A stretch of 63,464 nucleotides of DNA, the filler included. It is 6 parts of 6 records of this genome, joined end to end, with 100 filler letters (N's around TTAATTAATTAA, not from the genome) between each part and the next. Parts side by side here need not be neighbours in the genome. Positions count along the whole stretch, not along the records: positions 1 to 11,303 come from SRR31147125_4109; 5 more parts are not named here. One strand, given 5' to 3'. This document shows, piece by piece, positions 1-57,340 of this stretch. A program made the translations under genes and the position numbers. Each line of letters starts with the position of its first letter. Positions within the stretch are counted from its first letter, which is position 1. The notes under the pieces were generated by a model. That model was not told the origin of the DNA. It ran no database searches and saw only the letters and a list, made by a program, of their open reading frames with translations.

Positions 1-556
1 AATAGTACTTGCCCCTGCATTAAAAATCTCCCAGTTATAATCATCCGCATTGGAGACTTCTGCCGAATACAGAGAAGAGTTTTCTTCTCCCTGGCAAAAT
101 TTAGACGTGCCGTTAATTGCCGTAACTGAACCAACAGCCGATCCAACAATAACATCTATCGAAGCAGTAGTTGCCGGTTCACACCTTCCCCGGGCCGTAA
201 CTTTTACAGTTGCTGTATCTGCAAAGGAGTCGTCCCAGGTAACTACTCCTGTTATTGAATCAATAGTACTTGCCCTTGCATTAAATATCTCCCATTTAAA
301 ACTTTCGGCATTCAGGGCTTCTGCGGTATATGTTGAAGTTCCACTTCCCATGCACCGGCTATCCGGTCCGTTAATAATAGAAACCGGTCCTACATAAGGA
401 ATAACATTTACAATTGTTGAGGCTGGTGTTGAAGTTCCACACCCCTGGGCAGTAACCTGTATAGTTGCCGGTCCAGAAAAGCCACTGTCCCAGTTTACAG
501 TGCCGGTTGCAGGGTCAATGGTACTGGTCCCTGCATTAAATATCTCCCATGTATAA
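1..556 (-). repeat. Intragenic direct repeats encoding PKD-like domains (period 255-261 nt, 85-87 aa)
   Basis: aatagtacttgcccctgcattaaaaatctccca at 1, aatagtacttgcccttgcattaaatatctccca at 262, aatggtactggtccctgcattaaatatctccca at 517. Confidence 0.85.
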
Positions 557-2886
557 CTTTCAGCATCAGGAGCTGATGCTGAATAAAAAGATGTTGTCGT
601 TCCCTGGCAAACAACTGTATCACCTGTAGGTTCACTAACCTGTGCAACACCTGTAAGAGTAACAATAGTCACTTCAGAACTGAACAGGGTGGTAGTCCCC
701 GTACAATGCGGGGTAGTACAACTTAGCTTGTAAACATGGGGCCCGGTATCTTTTGGGGTATACCACTGTGTTGTTATCTCTGTAGATATACCGTCTTTGT
801 ACCATTCTACGTTAGTTTCAGTTGTTCTGAGGGTTAAATCGCCGGTACAATAAGTTTTAGGAATGTTATAACCATGTTCTGTCCCTTCAAGGACAAATGT
901 TGGTGGTGTTGTAGGCACCTGCGTTTCTCCTGTAATTGTATGTGTCAGGTGAGTAATGACTTCATCACAGGCATCCTTGTAAGCTCTTACCGTGTAAGTT
1001 CCTTCTGTACCTATATATGCTTCCAGAGGAGCAGCTGGATCCTTGAATACCAGAGTTGTTTGGGAGTCACTTGTTTTAGTAACTTCAGCAACCTGGGAAT
1101 TTCCATTTTTAAGAAGTTCAAAAGTAGTTCCATCTTCAATTGCTGATAAATTATAAAGGTATAGAGTAAAAGTATTTCCCTGGTCGCAATAGGTGTCTCC
1201 TTCTCCGTCAAGACGAACATCGGAAAAGTCGCTTAATAAACCGTCGCTTATGCTAACATAAGCAGATTTGGCAGAGCCGGAACTCCACAGCCCGGTATTC
1301 ATATCTTTTGCCCTGAGATAATAATATCCAGAACCATAACTTGTAGTGGTGGGTTCGTAGAACTGACCGGAACCTAAACTGGTAGAGGTGCCGTATTCAT
1401 TATATTGCCAGTACCAATTTTCCCCGTTTGGAGGAGAACCAACTCTTTCTAATTTTGCTTTTCCTGTGCATAAGCCGTTATAAACAACCTGGGGGGAATT
1501 ATTGGGTATGGATGGCCTTGATGCTCCATTTTGATGTATATCCAGTTCGTCAGAAGTACTCCTTGCTGACACTTTTACTGTTCCATTATTTGGTGATGTG
1601 CTGTCATTCTGGTCAATGCTTAATTCTAAGGTTGTACCGGATTGTTCTAAAGTTACAAAATCTGGTTTTGTGATTGTTAGTTCCGAGAGAGGTATATTTG
1701 TTGTGATGGTAACTGTTTTATCTCCTCCTGATGAACTAACACTCCACGAATGAGAGGAAAGGCTAATACTTGGTTCCTCTCCACTTTGGGAAACATATGT
1801 AGATGCAGTTTCACCTTCCGCGGAAACATGAATGTAACCTTCATTCCGATCTAAACTATTATTGGAAGGACATACAACCGTAATCCTGTCCTCGGAGCGG
1901 GAAGTGGTAATAAAATCCGGAGATGAGATGTTCAGTGATGTAAGTTCGACGTTAGTGGTAATGTCAATATAATCCGTTCCTCCGGATGCCCCAAAACTTA
2001 AGCTTCCCGGACTAAGGCTAATTCGGGGTTCATATTGTATGATATCAACTCGGTCGGATTCTGTTCCGTAAGATACTTCTACCCATCCTTCGCCATCCAT
2101 TGTTGAGGGGTTACATTTAACTCCAAGGCCCAGTCCTTCCTTATAGGCATCATCTACACAGCCTCCAAAGTCCACCGTTAAATCATTGATATCTATGTTT
2201 GTATTTATATCAAAATGTTTTGTCCCTCCGGCATAATCAAACGTATAACTTCTCGGGCTCAGAGTAATATCTGGCGCTTCCCCTGTCTGGGTGACAGAAA
2301 CCGATGTACTAGCTCCCGAGCCACTAACCGTAACACTTCCGGTCCGAGGAGTAATATTATAGTTTCTGCTACATTTAACCGTAACAATATTGTTAGAACG
2401 CGTTGCAGAACTAACACATCCTGATGTTTCAATCGTAAGGTCTGCCAGGGGAATATTGGTAGTAATGTTAAAAGTTTCACCACTTGTTTGATCAGCAGTA
2501 AAGCTTAACGAGGAGGGAGTGCAGGCAATATTGGCTGTGGCATTTACGGTGACTGAAATCATATCGTTATAGCCGTTGAAACTATCATAAGTTTCAACAT
2601 AGATTCCTTCATTGCCTGAGTTATTAAACAGGACATTAACCGTGCTCATGTTTACCCCATCAATATATTCATTGCCAGAGATTGTTGCCCCGTTACTTGT
2701 ATACCATGTATAATAGCCGTTAGGAGAGCTCCCCGAATAATCAGAAAATGTATAGGATCGTGTATCTCCCTGGTCAACAGTCGTTGCCCCTTTAATAGAA
2801 TATTGAGCACAAACTGCTCCGGCAATAAAAATGAACAAGGCAGTTATTACCGTTCTTAGATGTTTTATAGTAGATTGTGTTTGCAT
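1..2886 (-). CDS. Large secreted multi-Ig-like-domain protein (four BACON-like repeats, then PKD-like repeats); probable N-terminal part of a Bacteroidota RHS-core protein; truncated by window edge
   Basis: Not in the ORF track because there is no stop before the edge. I translated it by hand from ATG 2886 and it stays open to base 1 (962 codons). It has a signal peptide (MQTQSTIKHLRTVITALFIFIAGAVCAQ), repeats of the form I-x-L-S-P-x-S-x-x-F-x-x-x-G-G-T...(I)TTN, a GSPPNGENWYWQ...YYLRAK...GLWS motif and three WEIFNA(G/R)xSTI(D) repeats. The RHS core is inferred from context and is not visible. Confidence 0.85.
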   Translation of the reverse strand, partial: MQTQSTIKHLRTVITALFIFIAGAVCAQYSIKGATTVDQGDTRSYTFSDYSGSSPNGYYTWYTSNGATISGNEYIDGVNMSTVNVLFNNSGNEGIYVETYDSFNGYNDMISVTVNATANIACTPSSLSFTADQTSGETFNITTNIPLADLTIETSGCVSSATRSNNIVTVKCSRNYNITPRTGSVTVSGSGASTSVSVTQTGEAPDITLSPRSYTFDYAGGTKHFDINTNIDINDLTVDFGGCVDDAYKEGLGLGVKCNPSTMDGEGWVEVSYGTESDRVDIIQYEPRISLSPGSLSFGASGGTDYIDITTNVELTSLNISSPDFITTSRSEDRITVVCPSNNSLDRNEGYIHVSAEGETASTYVSQSGEEPSISLSSHSWSVSSSGGDKTVTITTNIPLSELTITKPDFVTLEQSGTTLELSIDQNDSTSPNNGTVKVSARSTSDELDIHQNGASRPSIPNNSPQVVYNGLCTGKAKLERVGSPPNGENWYWQYNEYGTSTSLGSGQFYEPTTTSYGSGYYYLRAKDMNTGLWSSGSAKSAYVSISDGLLSDFSDVRLDGEGDTYCDQGNTFTLYLYNLSAIEDGTTFELLKNGNSQVAEVTKTSDSQTTLVFKDPAAPLEAYIGTEGTYTVRAYKDACDEVITHLTHTITGETQVPTTPPTFVLEGTEHGYNIPKTYCTGDLTLRTTETNVEWYKDGISTEITTQWYTPKDTGPHVYKLSCTTPHCTGTTTLFSSEVTIVTLTGVAQVSEPTGDTVVCQGTTTSFYSASAPDAESYTWEIFNAGTSTIDPATGTVNWDSGFSGPATIQVTAQGCGTSTPASTIVNVIPYVGPVSIINGPDSRCMGSGTSTYTAEALNAESFKWEIFNARASTIDSITGVVTWDDSFADTATVKVTARGRCEPATTASIDVIVGSAVGSVTAINGTSKFCQGEENSSLYSAEVSNADDYNWEIFNAGASTI

Positions 2887-2892
2887 GGTTAT

Positions 2893-3366
2893 TTAGTTTT
2901 TTGTTAAATGCCATTCGGCTAACATTACTTTCATTGTTCCACTGTTTGGTATCTGAAGAACCAGGTTATTATTTGAGTAATATCCAATTTGCCCGGTGAA
3001 GACATCTCCGTTTGAAGCTGTCATTTTAAGAGTCGAACCAGTATCATTTAGCAATAAGGTTCCTGAAATCTGGCTGCCATTGGGCAGTTGTTGTAAAAAA
3101 GTACCATCAGCAGAAAAAATATACTGCCTGCCTGAATAATGACTAGTAAACCTAGTATGTCGTGTGGCATCCATTTTATCGTAATATGCCCTGGCTTCGG
3201 GGAGCATGGCATTAACCGAAGCATCTAAATCAAATGTCCATGTCCCTGTTAGGATTGTGGTAATATCAGCAGGATTTTGTTCCTGTGCATAGCCCCTAAT
3301 AGGGGAGATACCTGCTGTAAGAAGCAGGAACAAGAATAGTATCGCGGTTATATTTTGTGTTTTCAT
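2893..3366 (-). CDS. Small secreted lipocalin-like hypothetical protein
   Basis: Within ORF 2893..3492. The likely start is MKTQNITAILFLFLLLTAG (ATG 3366), which gives a signal peptide and removes the overlap with the upstream gene. The ILTGTWTF GxW motif is typical of Bacteroidota lipocalin-like domains. Confidence 0.65.
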   Translation of the reverse strand: MKTQNITAILFLFLLLTAGISPIRGYAQEQNPADITTILTGTWTFDLDASVNAMLPEARAYYDKMDATRHTRFTSHYSGRQYIFSADGTFLQQLPNGSQISGTLLLNDTGSTLKMTASNGDVFTGQIGYYSNNNLVLQIPNSGTMKVMLAEWHLTKN

Positions 3367-3421
3367 TGTATAAGAAGTGTTTGTTATATCTGGATTTAGT
3401 AATAATGTTTCCCGGCAAAGC

Positions 3422-6400
3422 TTAATTGTTTGCTGATTGTTGTCCTGCATAATGGTAATTGTAATGGTTAAGAATTTTTCCATCATTGTCACGCACTGTT
3501 TTTAACCGGCCAAAAATGTCGTATTCGTAATAGGTACTTTTGCCGTTTGTATCGGTTTGAGATGTCAGACCTATAAGGGGCTTATACGTATAATAAGTTA
3601 CCATGCAGTCAGAATCGGAAAGAACCGAGGATAGTGCTGTTTCCATATTGCCAATATCAGAGGAAACATCAGAAGCAATATCGCTGTTAGAAAACGGAAT
3701 ATTATCTACATTTGACTGCAGAGTACTGGCATTAAGTCCATCATCACTACTTACTATTTTTGCAACCGGATATTGGTTGTTGTAGCCCCATATGTAATAC
3801 TGGTAAAGTCCGTCGCGGGTTAAAGCTTTGGTCAAACGACCGGATGAGTTGTAGTCAATGAATTTAATTTCCGGGGTATTGCCATAATCAGAATCTTTAG
3901 CAGTGCCGGTAAACTCGTCGATAGAAGCTAATGGAGAGGTGATTTGCAAGATGTAATTTTCATCTGGAACATAATTACCATCATCTTCTTTATAAGTGGT
4001 TAAACTACTCTTGGTAATTTTTCCGTCAACTTTGGTTATTTGTTCAACAGGATAATTATGCATGTTCTTTGAGACCATATCACTGTAAACTCCTGTGCCT
4101 ATATCGGAAGGGTAACGGTATTTGTTTTCAGTTAAGTTTCCGTTGCTGTTAGTAATCTTCGCCGAACTTGTTAAAAAGGAAATCGGGTTTTGCTCATAAT
4201 CGATCATTTTTGTTACAGTTTCTGTATTAATTCTATCTATTGTAGTTTTTTTCATTAAGTAAAATGGCGATGACTGAATTCGATGTGGATAAAAGAAATA
4301 CCAAACATTATTCATATTAGCAATTTCTCTTAGAGGCATAAATCCATTTGTCAAAAATGCTATTGTATTTACATTCCCTTCATATGAATTATTTGTATTC
4401 TCCTCGGTAAGAGGGAATGGTGTGTTTTGGATATTTGGTATTTGGTTAACCATGTCAGGAGTTTCGTCATAAAAGTTATATTCATAAGTAATAGACTTGT
4501 CAGGATCTCCATATTGGTTCGTTGCAGAGTAGTGTAACTCCTCTAAAAGTAATCCCCTTTTCCAGTCAAGACTTTGTATTTTTGGATATGGCCAAAAGTG
4601 TGATGCTTCTAAATTCCCATCAGGATAGTCATCGTTTGAAGTAAAATATGAAACGGTACGACCTCCTGAACCATTCTCTCCATATTCTACTGTTACTTTC
4701 TTATATCCAAAGTTTTCACCCCCTGTTATGTAAAGTGGTGAGTTGTTGAAGGTTCCAAAAAATATTGAATTAAATCCGGTTCTATTCGAGCACCACTCTA
4801 TCTCATCTTGAGTCTTTTCAAAGTCATGAATGAAACAAGGATCTCTCTGTATTGCGATTGGCAAATAACCAATTTTTCCTGATGAAACCGGTACCAATCC
4901 ATCCTCAGAAACGCTAAAGTTATAATTATACTTTCTAACTATTTCTTTTGAAGTGACAGGATCAAAATCTGTTATTTTTTTTATTCGTAATCCTCCAACA
5001 AGAATCTCATCGGTGGAATTTACCTGTGAGCTTTGAGAAGTTAAAGCAGGTCCAATCCAATCGGCATTAAAATAGGCATAAGAGCCAATACAGTCAAAGG
5101 CATCGTTCCATTTTACTTTTAAACGATATACCGAATTACAATCCAGACTATAGCTTCTATCAAAATATACAGTTGAAATTTTAGTTTTGAAAGTTCCATC
5201 AATAATATCTAATTCTTCCAAAGTTAAGGAAAGGGCGGTGTCCCAAAACTTTCCACTTGCTCCAGGTGGTTGAATATAATTACACGTGCATGGATTTTCT
5301 CCCGACATAATATGAGATGTAAAATGTACAGCGTCGGATAAGAGAAGTTCACTGCTACAGTTTAGCACAAATGCATCACTATAACCTTCATCATTACCAT
5401 TTGTATTTAAGACCGAAATCCCAGCGGTATAATTTTGTATACCATCAAGTATTGATTCTAATACTTGCTTGATATTTAAATAACCAAGGGAAGCATTATT
5501 TATTGGGATTCTGGCAACATTATTCTCGTATTCAAACTCGGTGTAACCACCTGTTGGATATATTATTTTTTTGAGAGTACCGTATCTCGACCGTTCAGTA
5601 TCGATAGCCCGACTTTCAACGCCTGATGGTCGCAGAAATCTGCCAACGAAATTATCTTCATTAGCTTGTAACCAATACGGTTCTAGGCTTGTATTATTTG
5701 CACCATTGTAATACCCCCATAAATCCTGGCTCATACTCATTCTTGCTGGAAGTCCAAATGTATTTGTCAAGCCTGGGCCTTCTACATATTCAAAAGAATA
5801 AATTTCAGACTTCGAGTTTGATGGCGAAGTGAATTCTACTGAATTTAACGCAAGACGGAAGTTATTGTCATCTACAGAATAATTTCCATTAACCGGATTA
5901 TTTGTTACAAGTTTTATGTTTTTATATTCTTCATAACCAGAATCTGTTTTTCTATATATTTGGATTTTGTCAAGTACTTTATCATTTATTAAATCTTTCC
6001 TATTTGAACCGGGGACAAAGACAATTTTACCTTGTGGAAATATAATTTCTTTGAGGCGCAAAACCTTCGCAAATGAAGTTCTTACACGTTCCATTACATT
6101 TTTATGAATATTGGGTCTTTCTACAAATTCCAGATCATAGTTATAGTAGTCATAAGAGAAAAAAATCTGCTCACCTGTTGGTAATTTAATTTCGTTAATA
6201 TACCATGTATTAATCGAAGGTTCATCACGCATCCCATATGGGTGAGTTATTTCAAACTCTAGGCTATCAGGCTCTATCCGTGATTGTCCAAAAATATATT
6301 CGATCCCTTTGTCATTGGTAATTGTCCATTGTGAGAAAAATTGTTTATTGTACGAATAAAAACTTTTTGATGGATAATTATTTTTAATTATATAATTGTT

Positions 6401-7003
6401 TTTTGGAATGCTATGAACTTGATTAGTTGGATTCAGAATGAATTTTCCGGATTCATAACCGCAATTAAAATAAAAGTAATCGCTTTCTGTATCATATCCT
6501 GAGGCTCTTAAATTTTGGATAGAATTATTTAATTGCATTTTTGTTAATTCATCTTTTGTCCTGATACCAACCGATGAATATTTCTCCCAGGCTGAATATA
6601 TGGAATCAAAAATTTCTGTACTACTCAGGAAGGAAATATCATTTTCGAAGGCAGAATACCTATCTATCATTTCTTCATCTCTAATTCCATTTTGTTTTCT
6701 GTTTAACACTCCTCCCGCATTCAATGTCCAGCCCATTCCTACCCATGGTGCTACATTTTCCACTTTTATACCTCCTGCATGATAATTTAGGGAGATAGGT
6801 AGCTCAAAGTCTTTAATTTTTATTGAGTATAACGGAACCGAAATTTTTGGGATTCCAGTGTAAAGAGACACCGGGACATCTCCATATTTTGCAAAACTTG
6901 CAGCGTTTGGGGAGATCGGTGAAATCTCCGTTGACTGAGCAAAGGAGTAAAATCCTCCTTTTACTAGAAAAAGTAGAAGAAAAAGGAAACATGTTTTTTT
7001 CAT
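3422..7003 (-). CDS. Secreted YD-repeat (RHS-repeat family) protein, Bacteroidota type
   Basis: Within ORF 3422..7054, likely start MKKTCF (7003) with signal peptide. Family motifs: SPNAASFAKYGDVPVSLYTGIP, ISLNYHAGGIKV, WVGMGWTLNAGG, DLWGYYNG, GTLKKIIYPTGG, GGLRIKKI, and C-terminal YTYKPLIGLTSQTDTNGKSTYYEYDIFGRLKTVRD. Confidence 0.85.
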   Translation of the reverse strand: MKKTCFLFLLLFLVKGGFYSFAQSTEISPISPNAASFAKYGDVPVSLYTGIPKISVPLYSIKIKDFELPISLNYHAGGIKVENVAPWVGMGWTLNAGGVLNRKQNGIRDEEMIDRYSAFENDISFLSSTEIFDSIYSAWEKYSSVGIRTKDELTKMQLNNSIQNLRASGYDTESDYFYFNCGYESGKFILNPTNQVHSIPKNNYIIKNNYPSKSFYSYNKQFFSQWTITNDKGIEYIFGQSRIEPDSLEFEITHPYGMRDEPSINTWYINEIKLPTGEQIFFSYDYYNYDLEFVERPNIHKNVMERVRTSFAKVLRLKEIIFPQGKIVFVPGSNRKDLINDKVLDKIQIYRKTDSGYEEYKNIKLVTNNPVNGNYSVDDNNFRLALNSVEFTSPSNSKSEIYSFEYVEGPGLTNTFGLPARMSMSQDLWGYYNGANNTSLEPYWLQANEDNFVGRFLRPSGVESRAIDTERSRYGTLKKIIYPTGGYTEFEYENNVARIPINNASLGYLNIKQVLESILDGIQNYTAGISVLNTNGNDEGYSDAFVLNCSSELLLSDAVHFTSHIMSGENPCTCNYIQPPGASGKFWDTALSLTLEELDIIDGTFKTKISTVYFDRSYSLDCNSVYRLKVKWNDAFDCIGSYAYFNADWIGPALTSQSSQVNSTDEILVGGLRIKKITDFDPVTSKEIVRKYNYNFSVSEDGLVPVSSGKIGYLPIAIQRDPCFIHDFEKTQDEIEWCSNRTGFNSIFFGTFNNSPLYITGGENFGYKKVTVEYGENGSGGRTVSYFTSNDDYPDGNLEASHFWPYPKIQSLDWKRGLLLEELHYSATNQYGDPDKSITYEYNFYDETPDMVNQIPNIQNTPFPLTEENTNNSYEGNVNTIAFLTNGFMPLREIANMNNVWYFFYPHRIQSSPFYLMKKTTIDRINTETVTKMIDYEQNPISFLTSSAKITNSNGNLTENKYRYPSDIGTGVYSDMVSKNMHNYPVEQITKVDGKITKSSLTTYKEDDGNYVPDENYILQITSPLASIDEFTGTAKDSDYGNTPEIKFIDYNSSGRLTKALTRDGLYQYYIWGYNNQYPVAKIVSSDDGLNASTLQSNVDNIPFSNSDIASDVSSDIGNMETALSSVLSDSDCMVTYYTYKPLIGLTSQTDTNGKSTYYEYDIFGRLKTVRDNDGKILNHYNYHYAGQQSANN

Positions 7004-7799
7004 GATAACTGTATTTGAAGTTTGTTTAAATTTTTTGTGTAAAATAATCGCCATATGACATATTCATAATTAACATAATGTTTAATAGAGAGGTTATAAT
7101 AATTCCATTAATACACATTATGTAAGTTACAATATCAGTTTAGGCATAAACCTGTCAATATTCGACACCGGTTTAGCTTAATGTCATTATGTTTTGGATA
7201 TTTTTAGGGGTATAAAAAATTATTACTGTACATCATTTTGAGGTTTTGGGTTTATCTAAGTAACTAAATTTTAAAATTCAGTTGTTAATTTTTAATCAGG
7301 TATGTGTTTTTTTTTGCATGAACTTAAGGGTATATTTTAATTTTTAGTTGGTCAAATAAAATGAAAAAAATTAGGATTGGATTTAGGGAAGGTGTTAAAT
7401 AACACCTTTATTGGAATTTATTAATGTGGCACAGTCGTAATTAATTGAAATTTAAAGCAATATGAAGGTCGAAAAAATATGGCTTTAAAAAGAATATGGA
7501 ATTGTAACTATCTTTAATTTGTGGAATGTCAAACAAAAGATTAATATTGACGGCGTAAAAAATAGATTAGACCATTAATCTATTAAGATGGATGTAAAAA
7601 TATAAATTTTTTAGTGACGATAAACTGTTAGGATTTGGAGATACCTTGTATTTCTGAAAAATTAGAGTATTGTCTGAACGCAATAAACCTTGTTAAACAC
7701 ATATAGATAACCAAAACATTTATAAAAACGCCTATGCTGTTCCCTCTGATATTCTTATTGAGCTTTTTGCTTGGCTGTGTTTTATTTTGCCTTAACAAT

Positions 7800-9671
7800 A
7801 TGTTAAGTGTAAGTTTTTCAAGAAACAAATTTTTCCGATTAATTTATGTTTGCGGATTTGTGCTGTTACTATTTGGAACACATAAATTATCTGGACAGTC
7901 AAAAAAGGAACAGATAACTACTGTTTTAGATTCTCTGGCAAGCCATAATACTGCTCTTATACAGGAGGTCGATATCTCAGTTAGTGATATTCCATTGAAA
8001 GAACTCATTCGGATTCTGGGTAATACCACCGGCCTAAATATATCGGTGGAATCTAATGTGAATATTAAAGTAAATTCAAATTTTAATAAGGTAAAAGCAA
8101 AAGATGTTATTGATTTTTTGTGTTCTAATTACAATCTTAGACTTGAAGCATATGGGGATATTCTTCATCTGAAATCGATTGTTGAACGAAAAGATCATCT
8201 CGAAGTTGTTTATAATAGACAAGATTCAATTTTAAATTATTCTTTTGAAAATATTGAGGCCCAGCAGTTCTTTCAGGAACTTACCCAAAAAACAGATATA
8301 AATTTTATCCTTAATCCGGGAATAAAGAAGATTAGAATTAGCGGATTTGGCAAGAATATAAAATTTGTAGACGCGTTAACACAAATAGGAAGTTCAAGCG
8401 AGTTAAATATCAGAAAGAATACAGAAGGACTGTTTATGGTAGTACCAGCCATAAAAAATGATATTAATAAGAACGGGCTAACTTCCAAAAGGCTTAAACC
8501 GGTTTCAATAACTTACCAAAATAATTACATCAGCCTGTCTGCCAATAATTCAAAGATTGTTGACATTCTTGAGAATCTTGAAAAACAAAGTAATTATCAC
8601 TTTTCATATTTAAATCCAATAGAAGATTTTGTATCCATCAATTTAACTAATGAAACTGCGGAATCTTTCTTTAAGCATCTTTTTTATGGTACAAAAAATA
8701 CTTATAAACTTGACGGGAATACTATTTTCGTGGGAAGCAGAACTTTACCGGAAATAAAAACCTGTGAATTAATTAAACTTAATAACAGGAGAGTAGATTC
8801 ATTATTACATGTTTTACCAAAAGAATTAATGGACGGATTCTCGATTGAAGAATTCCATGAACAGAATAGCCTGATTGTCTGGGGAGATGCGGACAAAATA
8901 TATGAATTTAGGAATGTAATAAAAAAGATCGATCTCTCCGTTCCTGTCATTCTTATAGATGTAATCATTGTAGATTCTTCAAAGGAATTTTTAGTAGAAA
9001 CGGGCATCGATGCAGGACTTGGGGAGTCACCCATTGAAACAAAGGGAACGATTAATCCAGGGGTAAATTTTGATATGAATGCAAGTTCTGTAAACAAATT
9101 TCTGGATCGTATTGGCCTGACAAACCTGGGAAGAGTGAGTCCGAATTTTTACCTAAAACTAAAGGCTATGGAGTCGGACGGTATTGTTGAAATCAGAAGT
9201 ACACCGCAACTTTCAACCATTAACGGGCACTCAGCGTCACTGGCGGTGGGCCAAACTGAATATTACAAGGAAGAATTGTCGAATATATGGGGATATCAAA
9301 ATCCTCAGTTACAAACACAGTCTACCTACAAACCAGTTGAAGCCAAACTTCAGGTGGTAATCAGGCCTTTTGTAACAGGAAACGGGCACGTATCACTTGA
9401 TATTGATGTTCTTCAGTCTGAATTTACGACAAGAATAAGTGACAATGCCCCTCCCGGTATGGTTTCCAGAGAATTCAAATCAAAAATTAATGTTAAAAAC
9501 CAGGACTTGATACTCCTCGGAGGTTTGGAGGAGAACTCCAGCAGTGTTACCTCTAAAGGCCTGCCATTATTGTCAAGGATTCCCGTAATAAAGTGGTTCT
9601 TTTCATCCCGTTCTGATAAGAAAGAGAAAAAGCATTTGAATGTTTTTATAAAACCCACAGTATTCTACTAA
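7800..9671 (+). CDS. gspD: Type II secretion/type IV pilus family outer-membrane secretin (GspD/PilQ-like)
   Basis: Within ORF 7734..9671, likely start ATG 7800. N-terminal STN/N-like domains. Secretin C-domain motifs VPVILIDVIIVD, LKAMESDG, STPQLSTINGHSASL, LILLGGL, KGLPLLSRIPVIKWFFSS, LNVFIKP. Confidence 0.9.
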   Translation: MLSVSFSRNKFFRLIYVCGFVLLLFGTHKLSGQSKKEQITTVLDSLASHNTALIQEVDISVSDIPLKELIRILGNTTGLNISVESNVNIKVNSNFNKVKAKDVIDFLCSNYNLRLEAYGDILHLKSIVERKDHLEVVYNRQDSILNYSFENIEAQQFFQELTQKTDINFILNPGIKKIRISGFGKNIKFVDALTQIGSSSELNIRKNTEGLFMVVPAIKNDINKNGLTSKRLKPVSITYQNNYISLSANNSKIVDILENLEKQSNYHFSYLNPIEDFVSINLTNETAESFFKHLFYGTKNTYKLDGNTIFVGSRTLPEIKTCELIKLNNRRVDSLLHVLPKELMDGFSIEEFHEQNSLIVWGDADKIYEFRNVIKKIDLSVPVILIDVIIVDSSKEFLVETGIDAGLGESPIETKGTINPGVNFDMNASSVNKFLDRIGLTNLGRVSPNFYLKLKAMESDGIVEIRSTPQLSTINGHSASLAVGQTEYYKEELSNIWGYQNPQLQTQSTYKPVEAKLQVVIRPFVTGNGHVSLDIDVLQSEFTTRISDNAPPGMVSREFKSKINVKNQDLILLGGLEENSSSVTSKGLPLLSRIPVIKWFFSSRSDKKEKKHLNVFIKPTVFY

Positions 9672-9679
9672 CTTTTGTC

Positions 9680-10888
9680 GTGAATTTTCTACTCAACATA
9701 TCACCTCATTTAAAATATAACAAGTGTTATGTTCTTGTATATGAAATTAAAGAAACGTCAGTTTTTTCGCTATTCCGTGTGGAACAAACGAAGGGAGAGG
9801 TAGACACTGAGATAATACTTGAAAATGCTTCGGATATTAATTTGTTAGAAAACAACAAACTAAAAACAAAAGGGCAACCTTTCATTTTGGCCTTGTTTGG
9901 CGAAGGAATCGTACAAAGAACCTGTAAAGGGAGTGTTGATGAATTACATACTGTAATACCAAATATTAATATCGACGACTATTTTATTTGTTCATCCGAA
10001 GCCGGTGATGATAATAGATTGGTGGCCTTATTAAAACTACAGGCTTTACAAAGCATCGTTAATGAGCTTAATGAATTAAATATATTGATATGGGATGTTA
10101 CTCTTGGTTTTGTAGATATCGTGCGCCACAGAAAAATATTATCCATAGAACGAAGCCACTTTTATGTTGGAAATCAATATCTGAAGATAGAAGAAAATAC
10201 AGTTAAAACCGGAAAGAGGACTACCTCAGAAGAAAATAATTTGAATGAAACATCTCCTGACAGTACCAGACAGAATATTGCGATGGGAGGAGCAGTTTCT
10301 TTTTTCCTTAATATCAGTAATTCAACAGGGACACAACCATCAATTTTACTTGAGAACAAAAAAGAATTAACCGCTGCAAAAATTAGTTCCGTACTGACTA
10401 AATATTTTTTGCCTGCTTTAATGATTTTATTACTCATTAACTTTGTACTTTTTGATCGCATTCAGGGCGCAAATAACGAGCTTTCGGGAGTACTTGCCAA
10501 TAACAGTAAAATCAAACATCAAATAGAAAGTCTGAAATCACAAATCAGTGATGAAGAAGAGTTTTATAAACAAACCAACCAACACAGGAATAGAAAATAT
10601 GCTTTTTATATTGACCGAATTTCATCTTTAGCTCCATCTGGAATAAAGTTTGAAAAACTTACTGTAAACCCAATCCTGAAAAAGATTCGAAAAAATGAAA
10701 TGATAAGCTACAAAAGAAGGGAGATTGAAGTAAGTGGTTTAGCAAATAACGCGGATTGTTTTAGTCAGTTTCTAATGAATGTTGATACAACTTCAATAGA
10801 TCTGAAAATAACAAAACAAGCCTATAACTATGATAGTGAGAAGGGCAAAGCAAAATTTGAAATTGTAATACAATTTCCTGAAAAGTAG
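9680..10888 (+). CDS. PilM/PilN (GspL)-like assembly-platform protein
   Basis: Directly downstream of the secretin. Cytoplasmic N-domain, one TM segment (YFLPALMILLLINFVLF), coiled coil, then a PilN-like C-domain (IEVSG...F...AKFEIVI). Confidence 0.6.
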   Translation: MNFLLNISPHLKYNKCYVLVYEIKETSVFSLFRVEQTKGEVDTEIILENASDINLLENNKLKTKGQPFILALFGEGIVQRTCKGSVDELHTVIPNINIDDYFICSSEAGDDNRLVALLKLQALQSIVNELNELNILIWDVTLGFVDIVRHRKILSIERSHFYVGNQYLKIEENTVKTGKRTTSEENNLNETSPDSTRQNIAMGGAVSFFLNISNSTGTQPSILLENKKELTAAKISSVLTKYFLPALMILLLINFVLFDRIQGANNELSGVLANNSKIKHQIESLKSQISDEEEFYKQTNQHRNRKYAFYIDRISSLAPSGIKFEKLTVNPILKKIRKNEMISYKRREIEVSGLANNADCFSQFLMNVDTTSIDLKITKQAYNYDSEKGKAKFEIVIQFPEK

Positions 10889-10913
10889 GTGAATGAGAAC
10901 TGATATAAAATAA

Positions 10914-11303
10914 ATGGTTATGAAAATGAACTTGTTTCAAAAACGTCTTATTTTCTATAGTATTTGTCTTATCACTATCCTGATAATCAGCTGGTCCTTT
11001 GCGTTTAAAAAAACACTGACCGATTATACCAAGTTACAAGAAATAAAGTCTGGTATCAATAAGATAGAATTGGCACAAAATACCTTAGTTCATTTAAAAG
11101 AACAATTAGACGGGATACAATTGACACATCAAAATACAAGTGATTCAAGTAGCGTTAAACTAATATTTAAAAATATTTCAGATTTAAGCGCCCGGTACGA
11201 TGGAGTAAAAATTGTCAGTTTCCCTGAGATTCATAAACATTCTTTCAAGAGGTACGATATCGAAACCTTGAATATTATACTTGAAGGAAACTATTTTAAC
11301 CTG
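10914..11303 (+). CDS. PilO/GspM-like protein, truncated by contig end
   Basis: N-terminal TM, coiled coil and IILEGNYFNL motif; operon position after the PilN-like gene. The ORF-track stop lies in the linker. Confidence 0.55.
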
Positions 11304-11403
11304 NNNNNNNNNNNNNNNNNNNNNNNNNNNNNNNNNNNNNNNNNNNNTTAATTAATTAANNNNNNNNNNNNNNNNNNNNNNNNNNNNNNNNNNNNNNNNN
11401 NNN
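11304..11403. other. Artificial contig spacer
   Basis: 44 N + ttaattaattaa + 44 N. Confidence 0.99.
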
Positions 11404-11713: not shown

Positions 11714-13164
11714 ATGAAAACAGACCGCCGACATTTTCTCAAAATTGCCGGTATTTCCGGCACGGGAATGATATCATCCTGTATGATGTCAAATAATGCT
11801 GCAAAGCACTCTAAAAACTCAGATCCCTTTTTAGATACAAAAAAAGTGGCTGAACAAGAACATAAGCAACATTTTAATATGTGTGGTTATGCCGCTCCAA
11901 AGCTTGATACCGTTCGTATAGGTATTGTCGGTATTGGCAGCAGAGGCCTGGGATCAATAAAACGACTTTTGCTTATTGAAGGTGTGGAAATAAAAGCATT
12001 ATGCGACAAGTATCAGGAGCGTGTTGACCTGGCTCAAAAAAGTCTCAGAGAGGCCGGATTGCCATTAGCCAAAGAGTACGCCGGTAGTGAAGAAATCTGG
12101 AAAGACCTTGTAAACAGAGATGATCTCGACCTGATTTATATCTGCACACCAAGGGGGCTCCATACGAATATCGCGGTTCTGGCCATGGAAACCGGGAAAC
12201 ATGCCGCTACGGAAGTTCCCGCGTTATCTACTCTTGAAGAAGCGTGGCAACTGGTTGAAAAATCAGAGAAAACTCGAAAGCATTGCATGATGCTGGAAAA
12301 CTGTTGCTATGACTTTTTTGAATTACTCATCCTCAATATGGTCAGACAGGGTCTTTTCGGGGAAATAATTCATGCGGATGCAGGGTATATCCATTATCAG
12401 TTGGAGATGAATTTTAAAAACGACCCTCACCCGACATGTGGCGCCTGCGAGAAAGTCAGCACCGAAATGCCAACCTCTATCCGACCCATGGATTAGGCCC
12501 CATATGTCAGGTCATGAATATCAACCGTGGGGATAAAATGGACTATCTGACGTCAACAGCGTCCGACGATTTTCAAATGGGGCAAAAAGCGACCGAGCTT
12601 GCCCAAAAAGATGATTTTTATAAAGAATTTGACACAGACTCGTATCGTGGCAACATGAACACAACTGTCATCAGGACTGAAAAAGGCAGAACCATTATGC
12701 TACAATATGATATTACCAGTCCTCGACCCTACACGCGCATTCAACAGATCAGCGGCACAAAAGGCATGTCCCTTAAATACCCGGAACCTCCACGTATTGC
12801 CCTGGGCCATAAATGGTTTGACGAAGAACAGATGAAAGAAATATGGGAAAAATACACTCCTGAAATTGTGAAACGCGTTGGATTACTCGCGAAAAAGATC
12901 GGTGGACACGGTGGGATGGATTTTTTAATGGACTGGCGTTTGATTGATTGCCTGAGGAATGGCCTACCTGTAGAGCAAGATGTTTATGATGCAGCAGCAT
13001 GGAGCTCAATAATACCATTAAGCGAATGGTCAGTGGCCAATGGATCCAATTCTATTAATATACCTGATTTTACATGTGGTTCCTATAAAACCAACGTACC
13101 ACTTGATATAACCATGTCCAAAGGCGGAAATACCGGCATACGTCCGCTGCCAAATAACGGGTAA
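11714..13164 (+). CDS. Tat-exported Gfo/Idh/MocA oxidoreductase, GH109 (alpha-N-acetylgalactosaminidase-like); frameshifted near 12410-12435
   Basis: ORFs 11714..12496 + 12436..13164 form one gene. Motifs: RRHFLK Tat signal, RIGIVGIGSRG, GKHAATEVP, MMLENCCY, then MWRL...YPTHGLGP, GGHGGMDF, DVYDAAAWS. Confidence 0.85.
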
Positions 13165-16384: not shown

Positions 16385-17263
16385 TCACCTCATTTGCAAG
16401 AGCTTCCTCGTCTCCGTATAGCCCTCTGCTGTCATGCGGTACAGGTAGACACCGGACGAAATTTTAGTTCCACTATCATCCAGACCGTTCCAGGTGACTT
16501 GGTGGTTACCAGCATGTTTATTTTCAGCGATTAAGGAGCGGACCTTGCGGCCGAGCAAATCGATTATTATCAATTCAACATGGGCATTTTTCGGAAGTGC
16601 ATACTCGATTGTAGTGATCGGATTAAAGGGATTGGGAAAGTTCTGAAAGAGTTTGAAATCCTTTATCCGCACATCACCAGCGTCATCTACGGGGACGGGT
16701 ATTTGTTCAGTTCTTTTTTCTTCCACAAGATCAAAATAAGAATAATGGCCAAGGATATCTGGTCCTGAGGTCATTCCCGAGTCAAGGACAATTGCTACAC
16801 TATCACCTTCCTCAAGGAACATCGTGTCGACAACTGTTAGTTGAGTCCATTCGTTGGAAGTCGTTGTATCTACGGAAAGAATCGTTGTCCTGTCTGCATG
16901 GAAGACCTTTAAATAGACGCTCGTTTGCGATGGCTTTTGTTCAGCTTGCCTAGCCCAAACACTGACTTGCACGATGTCACCGTATCTCAATTCTGCAAGT
17001 ATCTGTTCGGCAGTTCTTGGGAAACAACTTTGGAGATTTCCTGTTGGAAATCTCAAGCACCACATACCTCCACCACCTGGTGCATCCTGAAAAGATTCAC
17101 CATCATTGCAACCGATGATCCAGTTCTCCAGCGAAGGTTGCTCATCAATTTCAAAACTTCCATTGAGCACTTGTGACAGACAAACTGATGGTATCAAAAA
17201 CAAAAAAAGCAAAAAAAACCAGGTGCCGATCACTGATTTTTGCAGAGATTTAATGTAATACAT
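16385..17263 (-). CDS. Secreted protein with CBM-like N-domain and T9SS type A / FlgD-Ig C-terminal sorting domain
   Basis: Signal peptide; VLNGSFE motif; C-terminal FKLFQNFPNPFNPITTIEY...WNGLDDSG...SSGVYLY...KLLQMR; RBS aaggagg. Confidence 0.8.
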   Translation of the reverse strand: MYYIKSLQKSVIGTWFFLLFLFLIPSVCLSQVLNGSFEIDEQPSLENWIIGCNDGESFQDAPGGGGMWCLRFPTGNLQSCFPRTAEQILAELRYGDIVQVSVWARQAEQKPSQTSVYLKVFHADRTTILSVDTTTSNEWTQLTVVDTMFLEEGDSVAIVLDSGMTSGPDILGHYSYFDLVEEKRTEQIPVPVDDAGDVRIKDFKLFQNFPNPFNPITTIEYALPKNAHVELIIIDLLGRKVRSLIAENKHAGNHQVTWNGLDDSGTKISSGVYLYRMTAEGYTETRKLLQMR

Positions 17264-17528: not shown

Positions 17529-19961
17529 CTATCGCACCAGATTCATCTTCATCACCTGAATAAACGTGCCAGCCTGCAACTCATAGAAATAGATACCAGA
17601 CGAAACCGCATTCCCCAGATTGTCCATACTATCCCAGCTAACACTGTGATGACCAGCTTCGTATTGCTTGTTTGTCAGCATGCGAATCTCTTGACCCAGA
17701 TTATTAAAGATTCTCACAGTTACGTGAGTTGCTTCAGGAAGCTGAAAGCCAATCTCGGTCTCGGGATTGAAGGGATTGGGATGGTTTTGTAAAAGTGCGT
17801 AGCTGTCTGGCACAAGCACTCCTTCTGCCGCTAACCTGTCAAGACTAGGTTTAGCGTCGTCACCTGCCTTGAGGCTGATTTGGGCAATCTTGGTCGCCCA
17901 TCCGGCCAACTCACCAAGTCTGGTATTGGGCTTGGCGTATTCCTGCGTGTACCAAAACGTGTCATCGACCGGATCCACCGCCATGGCGCTGTAATCACCC
18001 CAGCGTGCTCCTGTGCCGAGTTGTACATGCTGATCGTCGTTGCCATCGTGAACCAGCAGTTCGCCTATGTTCATGTGGCTCGACTCGCCACGCCGACCGA
18101 CCACCCCAATGCTCGGATAAGTGGTGCTACTCGAGATACTATACCCCAGGCAGGTTTCACCCTTAAGGTTCATCGCAATACTGCCCATCCAGCGGTGGTC
18201 GTCATCGGGCGAAAAAGTATTCTCCTTGAATAACTTCCATCCTCTATCCTGGTGATTACGGAACTCATACCAGCGCTTTCCTGCTTTACCATTGCCGTCG
18301 GCATCAATCGTATTAGTAACCACAGCCCGTTTATCTTTACCAAAGTCACGCAGTTGCAGGCGGTGCATCAAGCGGTCAGTGATGGCTTCCAGACGCGGGG
18401 CTCCCTCAGGTTGGTCGATGCAGCGTTCACGGATGGCGTCGCAGAGATCGATATCAAAAGGCGAAACAGGAATTCTTGCCACTTCGCTGATGGTGGAATT
18501 CGTGGGGCTAGCAAAATCCGGGTGAATCTCCCAGAAGTCAATCCTATTGCCTGATGCACCGTTGTTGGTGGCAAACGTTGGCGGCATATTGTCAAAAACC
18601 GGGCCGTCGTTATCGCCAGCAACGAAACCGAACTCATTCGTGCCAAGTTTAAAGAACGCCATCGTCGTTTGTTGATCGCTAAATGCCTCAGCTTTGTCTA
18701 TGGCGCCCAGCCCTGCGCCTTGGAAAGGTTGGAACAGGTGAACCATCACGCCAATAGCATCGGTGACGAAGCCGTACTTCGGATAGTCCGGAAGTCCGAT
18801 GTCGGTGAAGTCGAACTCATGTTGAAAGTAAGCGCCCGTCGGATCACCGGTCTCCGAGCAGGCGACGCACAGGGACCAAGACAAATTTGTAAAATCGAGG
18901 GCAAATTGGCTAACCAGCCATCGATCCGTCTCCTCGTCGTAGAGTACGATGACATCACCGCTATTGGTGTTCTCGCACCGCCCACCCAGGCCGGCCCAGA
19001 AGACGTTGCCGGGAAACGGGCCGAGGACTTCGTTGCCGCTCTTATCAAAGATGGTCGTCACCAGGTTAGTCATCTGCACGTAGTGATTGAGGCCGACGTC
19101 GCCATCGGTATCGGGCGGATACAATAGGTAGCCTACAAGGGCGTCGTTATCATCGTTTTCAGCACCTTCAAAAATCTGCAAGAGTTTGGCCTGCGAGCTA
19201 ACTTTGGAGGATTGGATGTCAGCAGGGCTCAATGACTCGAGTAGATTCATCTTCTTCATCAAACGATCCAACCTGGCCCCGTTGTGACCCATAGCATCCG
19301 CCTTGGCCTCATCCCTCATAAACATCGGCATCTCTTTTACAATATTGGATTTGGAAATAGCCGCAGCGCGTTTTGCGAGTGCAGCAGCAGTTACGAGACT
19401 ACTAATTGGAGGTGAGACACCGTCGGCAACTGATTCGAGAACAATCAACTCCGGTTCCGGTGGTAAATCTACACCGACGACCAAATTACCGCCACCGACG
19501 CCATCGAGGAATTCTCCAAATTTAATATAATAAGTCTCCCCACCTGTTGCCTCGAAAATCAGGTCATCGGTGAGACCAATGTCCACACATGCGACTTCAG
19601 TGAGAGCACCACAACTACCTATGAAGATGCCGTGTGCCGTGTCCAAAGGATTGCCACCGGGCTCTGTGCTGCCATCAGTACTAATATTAACCGTAATATC
19701 GTTTGAAGGTGTCCAAACATACCAGACAGTATTTCCGTCAGTTTGAGCACCACTCCCGTTACAGCCCAATGAGGGGTCTGCAGGATTACTTGTCGCGGTT
19801 GTTGTGTTCACTTCGTCTGTAAAGGGTATGAACGGAATGACGGTGGCATTAACACATTCATCGTTAGCGGGCTGTCCGTATACCGGCAAGGAGAAAAGCA
19901 GAATTGCCAGCAACGTCCCGCACGCTTTAACGAATTGGGATTGAATTTTGATTTGGTTCAT
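17529..19961 (-). CDS. Secreted protein: PANDxC domain, uncharacterised propeller-like domain, and T9SS type A / FlgD-type CTD
   Basis: Signal peptide; QPANDECVNA; PPDTDGDVGLNHYVQMTN; HRWMGSIAM; RWGDYSAMAVDPVDDTFWYTQEY; LLQNHPNPFNPETEIGF...SSGIYFY. Confidence 0.8.
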   Translation of the reverse strand: MNQIKIQSQFVKACGTLLAILLFSLPVYGQPANDECVNATVIPFIPFTDEVNTTTATSNPADPSLGCNGSGAQTDGNTVWYVWTPSNDITVNISTDGSTEPGGNPLDTAHGIFIGSCGALTEVACVDIGLTDDLIFEATGGETYYIKFGEFLDGVGGGNLVVGVDLPPEPELIVLESVADGVSPPISSLVTAAALAKRAAAISKSNIVKEMPMFMRDEAKADAMGHNGARLDRLMKKMNLLESLSPADIQSSKVSSQAKLLQIFEGAENDDNDALVGYLLYPPDTDGDVGLNHYVQMTNLVTTIFDKSGNEVLGPFPGNVFWAGLGGRCENTNSGDVIVLYDEETDRWLVSQFALDFTNLSWSLCVACSETGDPTGAYFQHEFDFTDIGLPDYPKYGFVTDAIGVMVHLFQPFQGAGLGAIDKAEAFSDQQTTMAFFKLGTNEFGFVAGDNDGPVFDNMPPTFATNNGASGNRIDFWEIHPDFASPTNSTISEVARIPVSPFDIDLCDAIRERCIDQPEGAPRLEAITDRLMHRLQLRDFGKDKRAVVTNTIDADGNGKAGKRWYEFRNHQDRGWKLFKENTFSPDDDHRWMGSIAMNLKGETCLGYSISSSTTYPSIGVVGRRGESSHMNIGELLVHDGNDDQHVQLGTGARWGDYSAMAVDPVDDTFWYTQEYAKPNTRLGELAGWATKIAQISLKAGDDAKPSLDRLAAEGVLVPDSYALLQNHPNPFNPETEIGFQLPEATHVTVRIFNNLGQEIRMLTNKQYEAGHHSVSWDSMDNLGNAVSSGIYFYELQAGTFIQVMKMNLVR

Positions 19962-21326: not shown

Positions 21327-21426
21327 NNNNNNNNNNNNNNNNNNNNNNNNNNNNNNNNNNNNNNNNNNNNTTAATTAATTAANNNNNNNNNNNNNNNNNN
21401 NNNNNNNNNNNNNNNNNNNNNNNNNN
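21327..21426. other. Artificial contig spacer
   Basis: 44 N + ttaattaattaa + 44 N. Confidence 0.99.
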
Positions 21427-26981: not shown

Positions 26982-27081
26982 NNNNNNNNNNNNNNNNNNN
27001 NNNNNNNNNNNNNNNNNNNNNNNNNTTAATTAATTAANNNNNNNNNNNNNNNNNNNNNNNNNNNNNNNNNNNNNNNNNNNN
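26982..27081. other. Artificial contig spacer
   Basis: 44 N + ttaattaattaa + 44 N. Confidence 0.99.
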
Positions 27082-37848: not shown

Positions 37849-39045
37849 ATGAGGACAAAAATAAACAGACAGGAGACTCCCTCTAAAAGCAGCAATCCTT
37901 TTTTTGCCAAAACCGGCAGTGCGGGATTTTTTAGTCCTCAAACTCATACAATTCAACAAGGGGGTGAGATTGCACCCGAATTACAGTCAAACGTTGGTGA
38001 TAATCACGATCTTCAATCGACACGTTTTGCAGGTGATACAGTTTTGGAAGCTTGTATGGATGGAGAACAGACGTTGCAATTTGGAAGCCGGGGAAGCGCC
38101 GTTAGAAAAATGCAACGAGCTTTGGTTGCTGCCGGTTTTCCGTTACCTGTTTATGGTGTTGATGGTATTTTTGAAGAAGAAACACAGGGAGCTTTACAAG
38201 ACTTCCAAAGAGCCTCATCGTTGCCCGATACCGGGGTGCTCGATTCAAGAACAATATCGGCATTGGACAGCTTATTTTATATTGATGAACCAATGCACCC
38301 GAGTGAGGAAACCTCTTATGATGTTGCGCCGGAGATTGAACCATATGCCTTAAATCTGGCTCCTGAAAATGACGACACTGCGCGAACGGAAGTTGGCGTA
38401 GGAGAACGGATAAGGTTTTACGCTAACACAGCCGGAATCTGGACGGCAACTGAGGGAAGAATTATTGGGTTAAATAATGGCGAGAATATGCTTTGGGAAG
38501 CTCCACCGGTGGCTGCAAATTCGACTGTAAGCCTTACAACACCGGGTGGGGCTGTTGCAATTAATATGACTGTTATTGCTCCTTCGTCACTAGATATGTC
38601 TTACCTCAGAAGTGAGGATATTCCTGTTGGAACGGCAGGTGCATGTATGTTTGCACAAATAACCATGCATCCCTTAAGTGTAAATTTTGGAAGGGTTCAA
38701 TTCTGTGAGGTGCCTGGCCCCGCAACTAACGTAGCCGGCTATTTTGAGCGGTTTTCTGCAGCCAGGTTAAGACATAGAACAGCAGGGCACTATGTTGCAT
38801 TTGATAATAATAATTCAGGTGTTGAAGACCATGCATATGAGCATGCTTTGCCGGATCCATATTTAGATGGAACCTATCAATGGGAAATTCCGAATAATTA
38901 TAAAATTGATGGCGAGCCAGATTCACAAGGACGTCATTTTACGGATACCGTTCAACGATTCCGAATGTTCGAGTGTGGGGCAGTGCTTATAACTAAATCA
39001 GGAACTTGTGTTCTGCGATTTATAAGTGATACTATTTTACCATAA
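37849..39045 (+). CDS. Putative eCIS cargo: polar leader, peptidoglycan-binding (PG_binding_1) domain, unknown C-terminal domain
   Basis: LQFGSRGSAVRKMQRAL...GVDGIFEEETQGALQDFQ....DTGVLD..T..ALD is a PG_binding_1 motif. No Sec signal. Starts 3 nt after the tape-measure stop. Confidence 0.75.
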   Translation: MRTKINRQETPSKSSNPFFAKTGSAGFFSPQTHTIQQGGEIAPELQSNVGDNHDLQSTRFAGDTVLEACMDGEQTLQFGSRGSAVRKMQRALVAAGFPLPVYGVDGIFEEETQGALQDFQRASSLPDTGVLDSRTISALDSLFYIDEPMHPSEETSYDVAPEIEPYALNLAPENDDTARTEVGVGERIRFYANTAGIWTATEGRIIGLNNGENMLWEAPPVAANSTVSLTTPGGAVAINMTVIAPSSLDMSYLRSEDIPVGTAGACMFAQITMHPLSVNFGRVQFCEVPGPATNVAGYFERFSAARLRHRTAGHYVAFDNNNSGVEDHAYEHALPDPYLDGTYQWEIPNNYKIDGEPDSQGRHFTDTVQRFRMFECGAVLITKSGTCVLRFISDTILP

Positions 39046-57252: not shown

Positions 57253-57340
57253 ACCAAAAGATACCATGTTATAAATAAACATTAATGCATATATAAAGCG
57301 TTAATATAAATATATATAAAATAATAATATGGAGTGTAGA

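Follow-up and report, generated by a model that had tools for sequence, protein, structure and literature searches.

The stretch of DNA analysed here (the window; 63,464 bases) consists of six unrelated contigs of a draft or metagenome-assembled genome assembly, split by five linkers, and its first contig (contig 1; positions 1-11303, 11.3 kb) carries the gene for a YD/RHS-repeat protein, P0001, which diverges from the start of a secretin operon. We somewhat favour the view that contig 1 shows an edge of an RHS toxin cassette from a Bacteroidota genome, positioned head to head with a type II secretion system (T2SS)-like operon. This view draws on a structural model of P0001, on the genes that follow its relatives, and on a survey of secretin loci in Bacteroidota genomes. 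The minus strand of contig 1 encodes P0001, P0003 and P0002, and the plus strand P0004, P0005 and P0006. All genes that the original prediction, made from the sequence letters, had described on this contig are indeed present. The finding is confined to contig 1, which is cut at both ends. Since 11304-11403 is an assembly linker, P0002 and the operon stop at contig ends and not at real boundaries, and the content beyond these ends was deduced from relatives only. The P0001 and secretin genes are separated by a divergent intergenic region of 679 nt (7055-7733; 26% GC); the original prediction had the divergence right and the spacing, ~800 nt, too wide. The promoter motif TAnnTTTG was found on neither strand of this gap, and no promoter was established there.

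P0001 is modelled as a TcB-like half shell

The P0001 gene (3422-7003, minus strand) encodes 1193 residues when counted from the likely start MKKTC at 7003, and the protein begins with a Sec signal peptide. An in-frame ATG upstream, at 7054, would lengthen it by 17 residues (open reading frame (ORF) 3422-7054). Pfam recognised a single RHS_repeat at the very C-terminus (residues 1163-1193, E 1.2e-5), and NCBIfam the YD_repeat_2x model. The Pfam and NCBIfam scans revealed no TIGR03696 RHS core and no toxin domain, and there was no match at E<=0.1 to a C-terminal sorting domain (CTD) for secretion by a type IX system (T9SS; Por_Secre_tail / CHU_C). PAAR or VgrG-type domains were not detected either, the one RHS repeat being all that Pfam gave. 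This agrees with the original description of a Sec-exported YD-repeat protein of ~1190 residues that has neither a T9SS CTD nor a toxin tip. P0001 is not a canonical single-chain RHS polymorphic toxin, as both the RHS core and the toxin domain are wanting.

The AlphaFold2 model of P0001 (52 sequences) had a predicted local distance difference test score (pLDDT) of 81.4 and a predicted template modelling score of 0.81. When this model was compared with the PDB using Foldseek, the 13 best matches were all TcB-containing chains (TcdB2-TccC3, YenB and TcdB1; E 1.6e-21 to 3e-18), and chains with TcC only scored E 3.7e-6 and 2.6e-5. VIA-align superposed model residues 44-1172 on residues 63-1245 of TcdB2-TccC3 (4o9x; Z 18.7, 598 residues, root mean square deviation 3.8), residues 44-1193 on 29-1368 of YenB (4igl_C; Z 16.0, 635 residues), and residues 44-395 on the SpvB N-domain (6p0x; Z 15.0). 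The model contains an SpvB-like N-terminal domain (~44-395), a beta-sandwich insert (~522-652) and YD hairpins up to the C-terminus, which is predicted to form part of the shell. The Pfam SpvB family (PF03534) is not matched by P0001 itself and is carried by some of its homologs. Judged by this confident model, P0001 is a YD/RHS shell protein over its whole length and represents the TcB-like half of such a shell. Of 8000 candidates that were scored, 920 belong to its family at E<=0.001. Most have 1000-1300 residues, and those with a name in their source are labelled YD- or RHS-repeat proteins or hypothetical proteins; all organisms named are Bacteroidota.

P0001-like genes are followed by genes for DUF6443-RHS toxins

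A search of genome contigs with P0001 alone yielded one locus (L001, Flavobacterium dankookense), and a metagenome scan with the family alignment yielded 79. In F. dankookense, the P0001 homolog is directly followed by a gene for a 1196-residue protein with DUF6443 and RHS repeats, and then by a gene for 201 residues. The same order recurs in the metagenomes, where each of the 31 loci that extend 6 kb or more downstream showed a same-strand DUF6443-RHS match downstream of the P0001-like gene. These matches begin 13 to 4466 nt past the stop codon, and in two of the 31 loci at more than 3400 nt. The P0001-like and RHS genes are fused in three further metagenome loci, and fused proteins of 2164-2338 residues, with a P0001-like N-terminus, DUF6443 and RHS repeats, are also found beside secretins (L063, L067 and L069).

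TIGR03696 was present in all eight partners or fusions tested, versus neither of two P0001-like proteins. The partners end in toxin domains, such as Tox-HNH-HHH, and are followed by an immunity-like gene. Their N-termini are often long and variable, with PKD_6, PKD_3, Ig_7, MAM, CBM96, SprB or LRR domains, and the start of DUF6443 ranges between residues 84 and 1543. In some cases (L168, L185) the members of the pair are separated by a small signal-peptide gene (197-224 residues). Because of the strict synteny and the natural fusions, we consider it very likely for this family that the toxin is enclosed in a single YD cocoon built from two chains, in the manner of TcB and TcC. The idea of a two-part RHS cage, put forward in the original prediction, has thus gained support from the TcB fold of P0001, the invariable downstream RHS genes, the fusions, and the relatives of P0002 described below.

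The comparison with TcdB2-TccC3 of Photorhabdus and YenB-YenC of Yersinia entomophaga shows both parallels and differences. P0001 superposes on TcB from the SpvB-like N-terminus to near the C-terminus, and the second protein of the relatives combines an RHS core with a C-terminal toxin and is encoded next to, or fused with, the first, in the order B then C. In contrast to TcB-TcC, both chains here have Sec signal peptides, the partner begins with DUF6443 and with extensions of varying Ig, PKD or lectin type, and P0001 has the beta-sandwich insert mentioned above, a TcB-type propeller not being established. At the sequence level, P0001 and YenB are barely similar (profile E 0.009). The release of Tc toxins proceeds by lysis (type 10 secretion system). 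A TcA component was looked for by means of VRP1, which was found in none of five genomes, a result that is uninformative since the search had no positive control and the control genomes were blank as well; the neighbour genes scanned showed no TcA-type Pfam match. The partners also share features with the Rhs effectors of type VI secretion systems (T6SS) and with WapA of Gram-positive bacteria, namely the YD/RHS shell, the RHS core autoprotease, the polymorphic C-terminal toxin and the downstream immunity-like gene. Unlike these, the pair described here is Sec-exported in a diderm, and its shell is split over two chains. A split TcB-like and DUF6443-RHS pair without TcA is a form of RHS toxin that has been little described and appears to be widespread in Bacteroidota. 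The term 'DUF6443' was not found in the full-text literature searched, a search that left subscription journals outside its scope.

P0002 as the probable partner of P0001

P0002 (1-2886, minus strand) comprises more than 962 residues, starts with a signal peptide and is open at the contig end. Pfam detected PKD_6 (E 1.9e-9), and a BACON match stayed below the cut-off, in line with the signal-peptide protein with Ig repeats that had been predicted here. The gene occupies the syntenic position of the RHS partner. A phmmer search with P0002 gave 1241 matches at E<=0.001, and we scanned 12 of the 150 relatives listed (ranks 1-9, 11, 15 and 21). Seven of the 12 are RHS proteins, among them the five most identical ones (40-46%). 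DUF6443 was found in five of the 12, in some cases with RHS repeats and Tox-HNH-EHHH or Toxin-JAB1, and two more align over ~570 residues with the RHS shell of the DUF6443-bearing proteins. The best match listed, P0131, is of the RHS-shell type (E 5e-227, 46% identity). Because the closest relatives are PKD-repeat DUF6443-RHS toxins, and because of the synteny rule, P0002 probably represents the PKD repeats that extend a DUF6443-RHS-core toxin at its N-terminus, and as such the TcC-like partner of P0001.

A different explanation is that P0002 is an ordinary T9SS-secreted adhesin with PKD and BACON domains, and that the TcB-like P0001 is an orphan here, lacking a partner nearby. P0002 was in fact first read as a T9SS adhesin, on the basis of a word-based search in which three of four long relatives had a T9SS CTD and none an RHS part; this reading was revised after the exhaustive phmmer search, in which the closest relatives were RHS proteins. 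Still, three of the 12 phmmer relatives scanned are T9SS-CTD adhesins, and the remaining two were assigned neither RHS nor CTD. The organism uses T9SS, since proteins with T9SS CTDs are encoded on other contigs of the window. In addition, any RHS part of P0002 falls beyond the contig end, outside the sequence available, and DUF6443 would need to start past residue 962, a distance that recalls the two of 31 loci in which the RHS match is more than 3400 nt away. These points count against P0002 being an RHS toxin. On the other side stand the DUF6443-RHS genes behind all 31 P0001-like genes with enough downstream sequence, and the fact that the CTD-bearing relatives of P0002 are only 30-35% identical to it, whereas the five nearest ones, at 40-46%, are RHS proteins. 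We therefore regard an adhesin next to an orphan P0001 as rather improbable.

The small gene between P0001 and P0002 encodes P0003 (2893-3366, minus strand; 157 residues with a signal peptide). It had been described as lipocalin-like; the gene is present, and for the label we found no Pfam match and, as a weak indication, a protein-atlas lead to Lipocalin_4 clusters (score 0.89). A homolog of P0003 (E 5e-15) directly follows the P0001-like gene in another locus (L188). P0003 is possibly a small, lipocalin-like accessory protein.

The secretin operon on contig 1 and in relatives

P0004 (7734-9671, plus strand) is a secretin, with PF00263 at residues 478-643 (E 4.9e-35; 121 bits versus a cut-off of 27.5) and weaker STN and Secretin_N matches. 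It scored below the NCBIfam cut-offs for GspD and PilQ (GspD TIGR02517, 135.9 bits versus a cut-off of 351). In the secretin tree it falls in a clade of 13 rows (SH-aLRT 100), together with secretins of complete GspE/GspF/pilin operons. The next gene encodes P0005 (9680-10888, plus strand), a bitopic protein of 402 residues and a candidate PilM/PilN-like (GspL-like) assembly-platform protein. It has no Pfam match, and its family profile was blank against the PDB at E<=10. The secretin is followed by a P0005 homolog in nine loci (L065, L070, L079, L081, L073, L075, L077, L078 and L080), and hhalign matched this family over 357 columns (probability 97.9%, E 5.6e-13) to a PilN-bearing family, that is, the longer proteins that follow the secretin in the other secretin clade and whose member in L063 scores with Pfam PilN. 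P0006 (10914-11303, plus strand) is putatively PilO/GspM-like and runs for 130 residues up to the contig end. In relatives, too, a P0006-like protein comes after the P0005-like one, and genes for ~320 and ~170 residues continue the operon in L075-L078. The best PDB match of its family profile was the PilO protein of Myxococcus (3jc8), with a weak E value of 0.009, and the protein at the equivalent position in L063 matches Pfam PilO (1.7e-9). The proposed operon of secretin, PilN-like and PilO-like genes holds for the secretin by PF00263, is probable for the PilN-like gene by profile alignment of its family, and is weaker for PilO.

On contig 1 the operon starts with the secretin gene, and an ATPase gene is missing upstream of it. 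The operons of relatives are complete and comprise a pilin, Peptidase_A24, a T2SSE ATPase, the secretin, two platform proteins, T2SSF and several pseudopilin-like genes. They are of the same kind as the operons of the 'so-called T2SS of Bacteroidetes' (Cytophaga hutchinsonii CHU_3191-3199; Fjoh_0614-0622), as described in the relevant passages of PMC5553014, where the shared set consists of a secretin, a GspE-like ATPase, a GspF-like platform protein, pilins, a prepilin peptidase and unannotated L/M-like proteins. The likeness to the window is one of operon kind and not of a comparison with CHU_3195. Those passages name no direct substrate of the C. hutchinsonii machine and do not mention a link with RHS proteins (PMC5553014). 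The operon of contig 1 belongs to this system, which is related to the type IVa pilus (T4aP). The T2SS label given in the original prediction is therefore better replaced by this T4aP-like 'so-called T2SS of Bacteroidetes', the GspD equivalog that marks the classical T2SS being missed.

The kinship with pili raises the question of whether the machine, instead of being a secretion piston, is a type IV pilus or competence-type fibre, with an RHS toxin that is co-regulated for killing before DNA uptake or for contact-dependent presentation at the fibre. According to Denise et al. (2019), the Bacteroidetes system branches with T4aP and not with T2SS, and possibly constitutes a secretion system of its own (PMC6668835). 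The pilins of the relatives match the Pfam models ComP_DUS and PilA (E ~1e-5), their platform proteins match PilN and PilO, and those operons of the larger clade that were read throughout (L063, L064 and L067) show one pilin and a short, 388-residue ATPase, no platform protein being seen. In contrast, GspF-like T2SSF and a number of genes resembling minor pseudopilins occur, in T2SS fashion, in the clade to which the window's secretin belongs. Moreover, a retraction ATPase was not identified, and the genomic data analysed gave no sign of a fibre or of DNA uptake. A pilus or competence fibre is, in our view, very unlikely.

RHS genes in the neighbourhood of secretin genes

For the survey, 401 Bacteroidota genomes were searched with P0001 and with the secretin. 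P0001 was found in 50 genomes at E<=1e-10, and the secretin in 48 at E<=1e-5, 37 of which reached E<=1.4e-33; both were present in 20 genomes (odds ratio 7.7). The regions of up to 10 kb on either side of all 40 strong secretin places were compared with 20 control regions of 20 kb, taken from 20 of the same genomes at a distance of ~80-160 kb on the same contig. RHS/YD genes were detected by tblastn (E<=1e-5), using parts of P0001 and of the RHS protein of F. dankookense as queries. As a result, an RHS/YD gene was found within 10 kb in 23 of the 40 secretin loci versus one of the 20 controls (Fisher p 6e-5), so the secretin homologs are enriched beside RHS/YD genes, as the pairing suggested in the original prediction would lead one to expect. 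Pfam added teneurin-like YD-shell proteins in or beside the operons of L085, L091, L097 and L100, with TTR, FN-plug, NHL and TEN_YD-shell domains and, in L091, a Tlde1 toxin domain, and it revealed a PKD and Tox-REase-7 toxin that adjoins the secretin in L099. The combined count of 28 of 40 loci by tblastn and Pfam was kept apart from the comparison, because the Pfam scan covered the secretin loci and not the controls. Since teneurin-like proteins also lie beside secretins, the link is wider than the P0001 type of RHS protein.

The RHS link is present in both major, deep secretin clades. Among the 23 positive loci, the RHS gene lies on the strand of the secretin in 19 (13 downstream and six upstream) and is divergent, like in the window, in four. 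Only 93-143 nt separate the last machine gene from the start of the RHS or P0001-like gene in L063, L064, L065 and L067. The layout of contig 1 is repeated in one metagenome locus (L168), which shows a divergent operon, a P0001-like gene, a gene for 197 residues, an RHS toxin gene and a gene for 214 residues, and whose secretin is among the closest to P0004 (E 6e-113).

Some secretin loci in which no RHS gene was detected have other neighbours. In L076, a row of six small ORFs (369-5731, plus strand; 102-177 residues, no signal peptides) lies downstream of the T2SS-like operon; these ORFs might represent orphan immunity genes in an array. In L073 (2-4870, minus strand) and L082 (10868-16000, plus strand), RHS-negative secretin operons adjoin genes for signal-peptide proteins of 1622 and more than 1710 residues, respectively, that have no Pfam family and may be other types of cargo.

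A possible route of export

In the mechanism that we propose, P0001 would be made with a Sec signal and would fold in the periplasm into a toxin-free TcB-like half shell. Its partner would be the product of the next large gene and contain PKD/Ig repeats, DUF6443, the RHS shell, the RHS core autoprotease and a C-terminal toxin, P0002 being the first 962 residues of it. The two chains would form one cocoon around the toxin in the periplasm, and this periplasmic RHS complex would cross the outer membrane through the secretin. We infer three of these steps, namely the formation of one cocoon from two chains, P0002 as the second chain, and the exit through the secretin. Because RHS genes occur in or beside the operons far above chance, and in both secretin clades, we lean slightly towards the RHS cassette being cargo of the T2SS-like machine, or being deployed together with it.

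Several observations weigh against this connection. Of the 40 secretin loci, 12 had no RHS gene by any test used, two of these being contigs of less than 3.6 kb, and the genomes are related, so that the counts do not represent independent events. Looking from the other side, 30 of the 50 P0001-positive genomes gave no secretin match, and a secretin with ATPase lay within 10 kb in only three of the 79 P0001-family metagenome loci, 34 of which had at least 8 kb of upstream sequence. PF00263 was found in none of five genomes with strong P0001 homologs, and the P0001 family thus exists independently of the secretin. Genes for the ATPase, platform protein, pilin and peptidase are on none of the six contigs of the window. 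The width of a closed BC cocoon roughly equals or exceeds that of known secretin channels, which makes it physically uncertain whether an assembled cocoon could pass. Finally, in the passages of PMC5553014 that deal with mutants of the C. hutchinsonii 'T2SS' machine, the extracellular protein profile hardly changed, and it was the outer-membrane proteins that were altered (PMC5553014).

These last findings, and the secretin-free genomes and loci, would also fit if the RHS cassette and the T2SS-like operon were no more than accessory island genes that have accumulated in the same places, with RHS release by lysis, by vesicles or through another outer-membrane protein, and with the secretin serving adhesion or surface display. 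Genes resembling those of mobile elements flank some loci (judged from ORF starts in L063, L064 and L074), and a putative outer-membrane barrel protein of ~490 residues, encoded directly upstream in 14 of 53 P0001 loci, suggests other envelope partners. Such unlinked neighbours would not readily account for the enrichment of 23 of 40 loci over one of 20 controls, nor for the shared strand in 19 of 23 loci and the spacing of ~100 nt that several distant genomes show behind their final machine gene. They would also leave unexplained that the link is kept over two deep secretin clades and over P0001-like, fused and teneurin-like RHS types. We consider such co-location without a common function unlikely, somewhat less so than the adhesin reading of P0002.

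The upstream barrel protein is a conserved signal-peptide protein of 440-524 residues without a Pfam family, is encoded directly upstream of the P0001-like gene in L124, L125, L128, L130, L138, L143, L147, L153, L160, L166, L171, L185 and L186, and is absent from the window; a truncated member of 140 residues in L142 brings the family to 14 of the 53 upstream ORFs. Its AlphaFold2 model, of moderate confidence (pLDDT 67), shows a long helical N-terminal part and a C-terminal eight-strand barrel that is OmpA-like (Foldseek E 7e-4). As a lead, this family may supply the RHS pair with an envelope partner where the locus is secretin-free.

Returning to the RHS cassette as cargo of, or companion to, the T2SS-like machine, the exit of the assembled periplasmic RHS complex through the secretin is the mechanism that we prefer, as a tentative proposal, somewhat less probable than the link itself. 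More speculative still is the idea that exporting weapons is the chief task of the T4aP-derived 'T2SS' in Bacteroidota, whose habitual cargo would be Sec-delivered, periplasm-assembled RHS cocoons, including TcA-less TcB/TcC-like pairs. If true, polymorphic toxins would have one more route of secretion, in addition to T6SS, the type VII secretion system, Sec in monoderms and lysis-type release. The observations bear both on the substrate of the Bacteroidetes 'T2SS' and on the way in which the many signal-peptide RHS toxins of Bacteroidota cross the outer membrane, and the recurrent link at the level of operons provides a specific hypothesis amenable to knockout tests.

Published work contains hints in the same direction. 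Duchaud et al. (2018) describe, for Flavobacterium psychrophilum CC-ST10, a 35-kb cluster (FPSM_02418-02439) in which T2S genes flank proteins that carry domains of ABC toxins, and suggested that its role is one of dedicated translocation (PMC5808330). This is a remark on a single species with no survey or test, and we liken the cluster to contig 1 by its description only (PMC5808330). In the tables of Zhang et al. (2012), many Bacteroidetes RHS toxins are listed under the export types 'T2SS' or 'TcdB/TcaC' (PMC3482391). Within the full-text literature searched, with subscription journals again outside the scope, we found no survey of, or experiment on, a link between RHS proteins and secretins, the one-species remark in PMC5808330 being the only mention.

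Other contigs of the window

The linkers between the six contigs have the form N44-TTAATTAATTAA-N44 and are located at 11304-11403, 21327-21426, 26982-27081, 39144-39243 and 55963-56062. Adjacency across them is meaningless. Proteins with T9SS C-terminal sorting domains are encoded on the minus strand at 16385-17263, 17529-19961 and 53092-55869. Two overlapping ORFs on the plus strand (11714-12496 and 12436-13164) both match GH109 / GFO_IDH_MocA, and the pair (11714-13164) looks like one gene that was split by a frameshift or sequencing error. The contig at 27082-39143 contains part of a contractile injection system locus, with a tape-measure protein at 36049-37845 (PF19268, E 4e-102), a PG_binding_1 protein at 37849-39045, a PKD protein of 1298 residues and several ORFs without a family. 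The sixth contig carries a second RHS locus (57329-63464, plus strand), where a gene for a 1669-residue protein with DUF6531 and RHS repeats is followed by a DUF6443/RHS ORF that is cut at the window end. The 1669-residue protein was considered as a homolog of P0001 and ruled out (best E 1.5).

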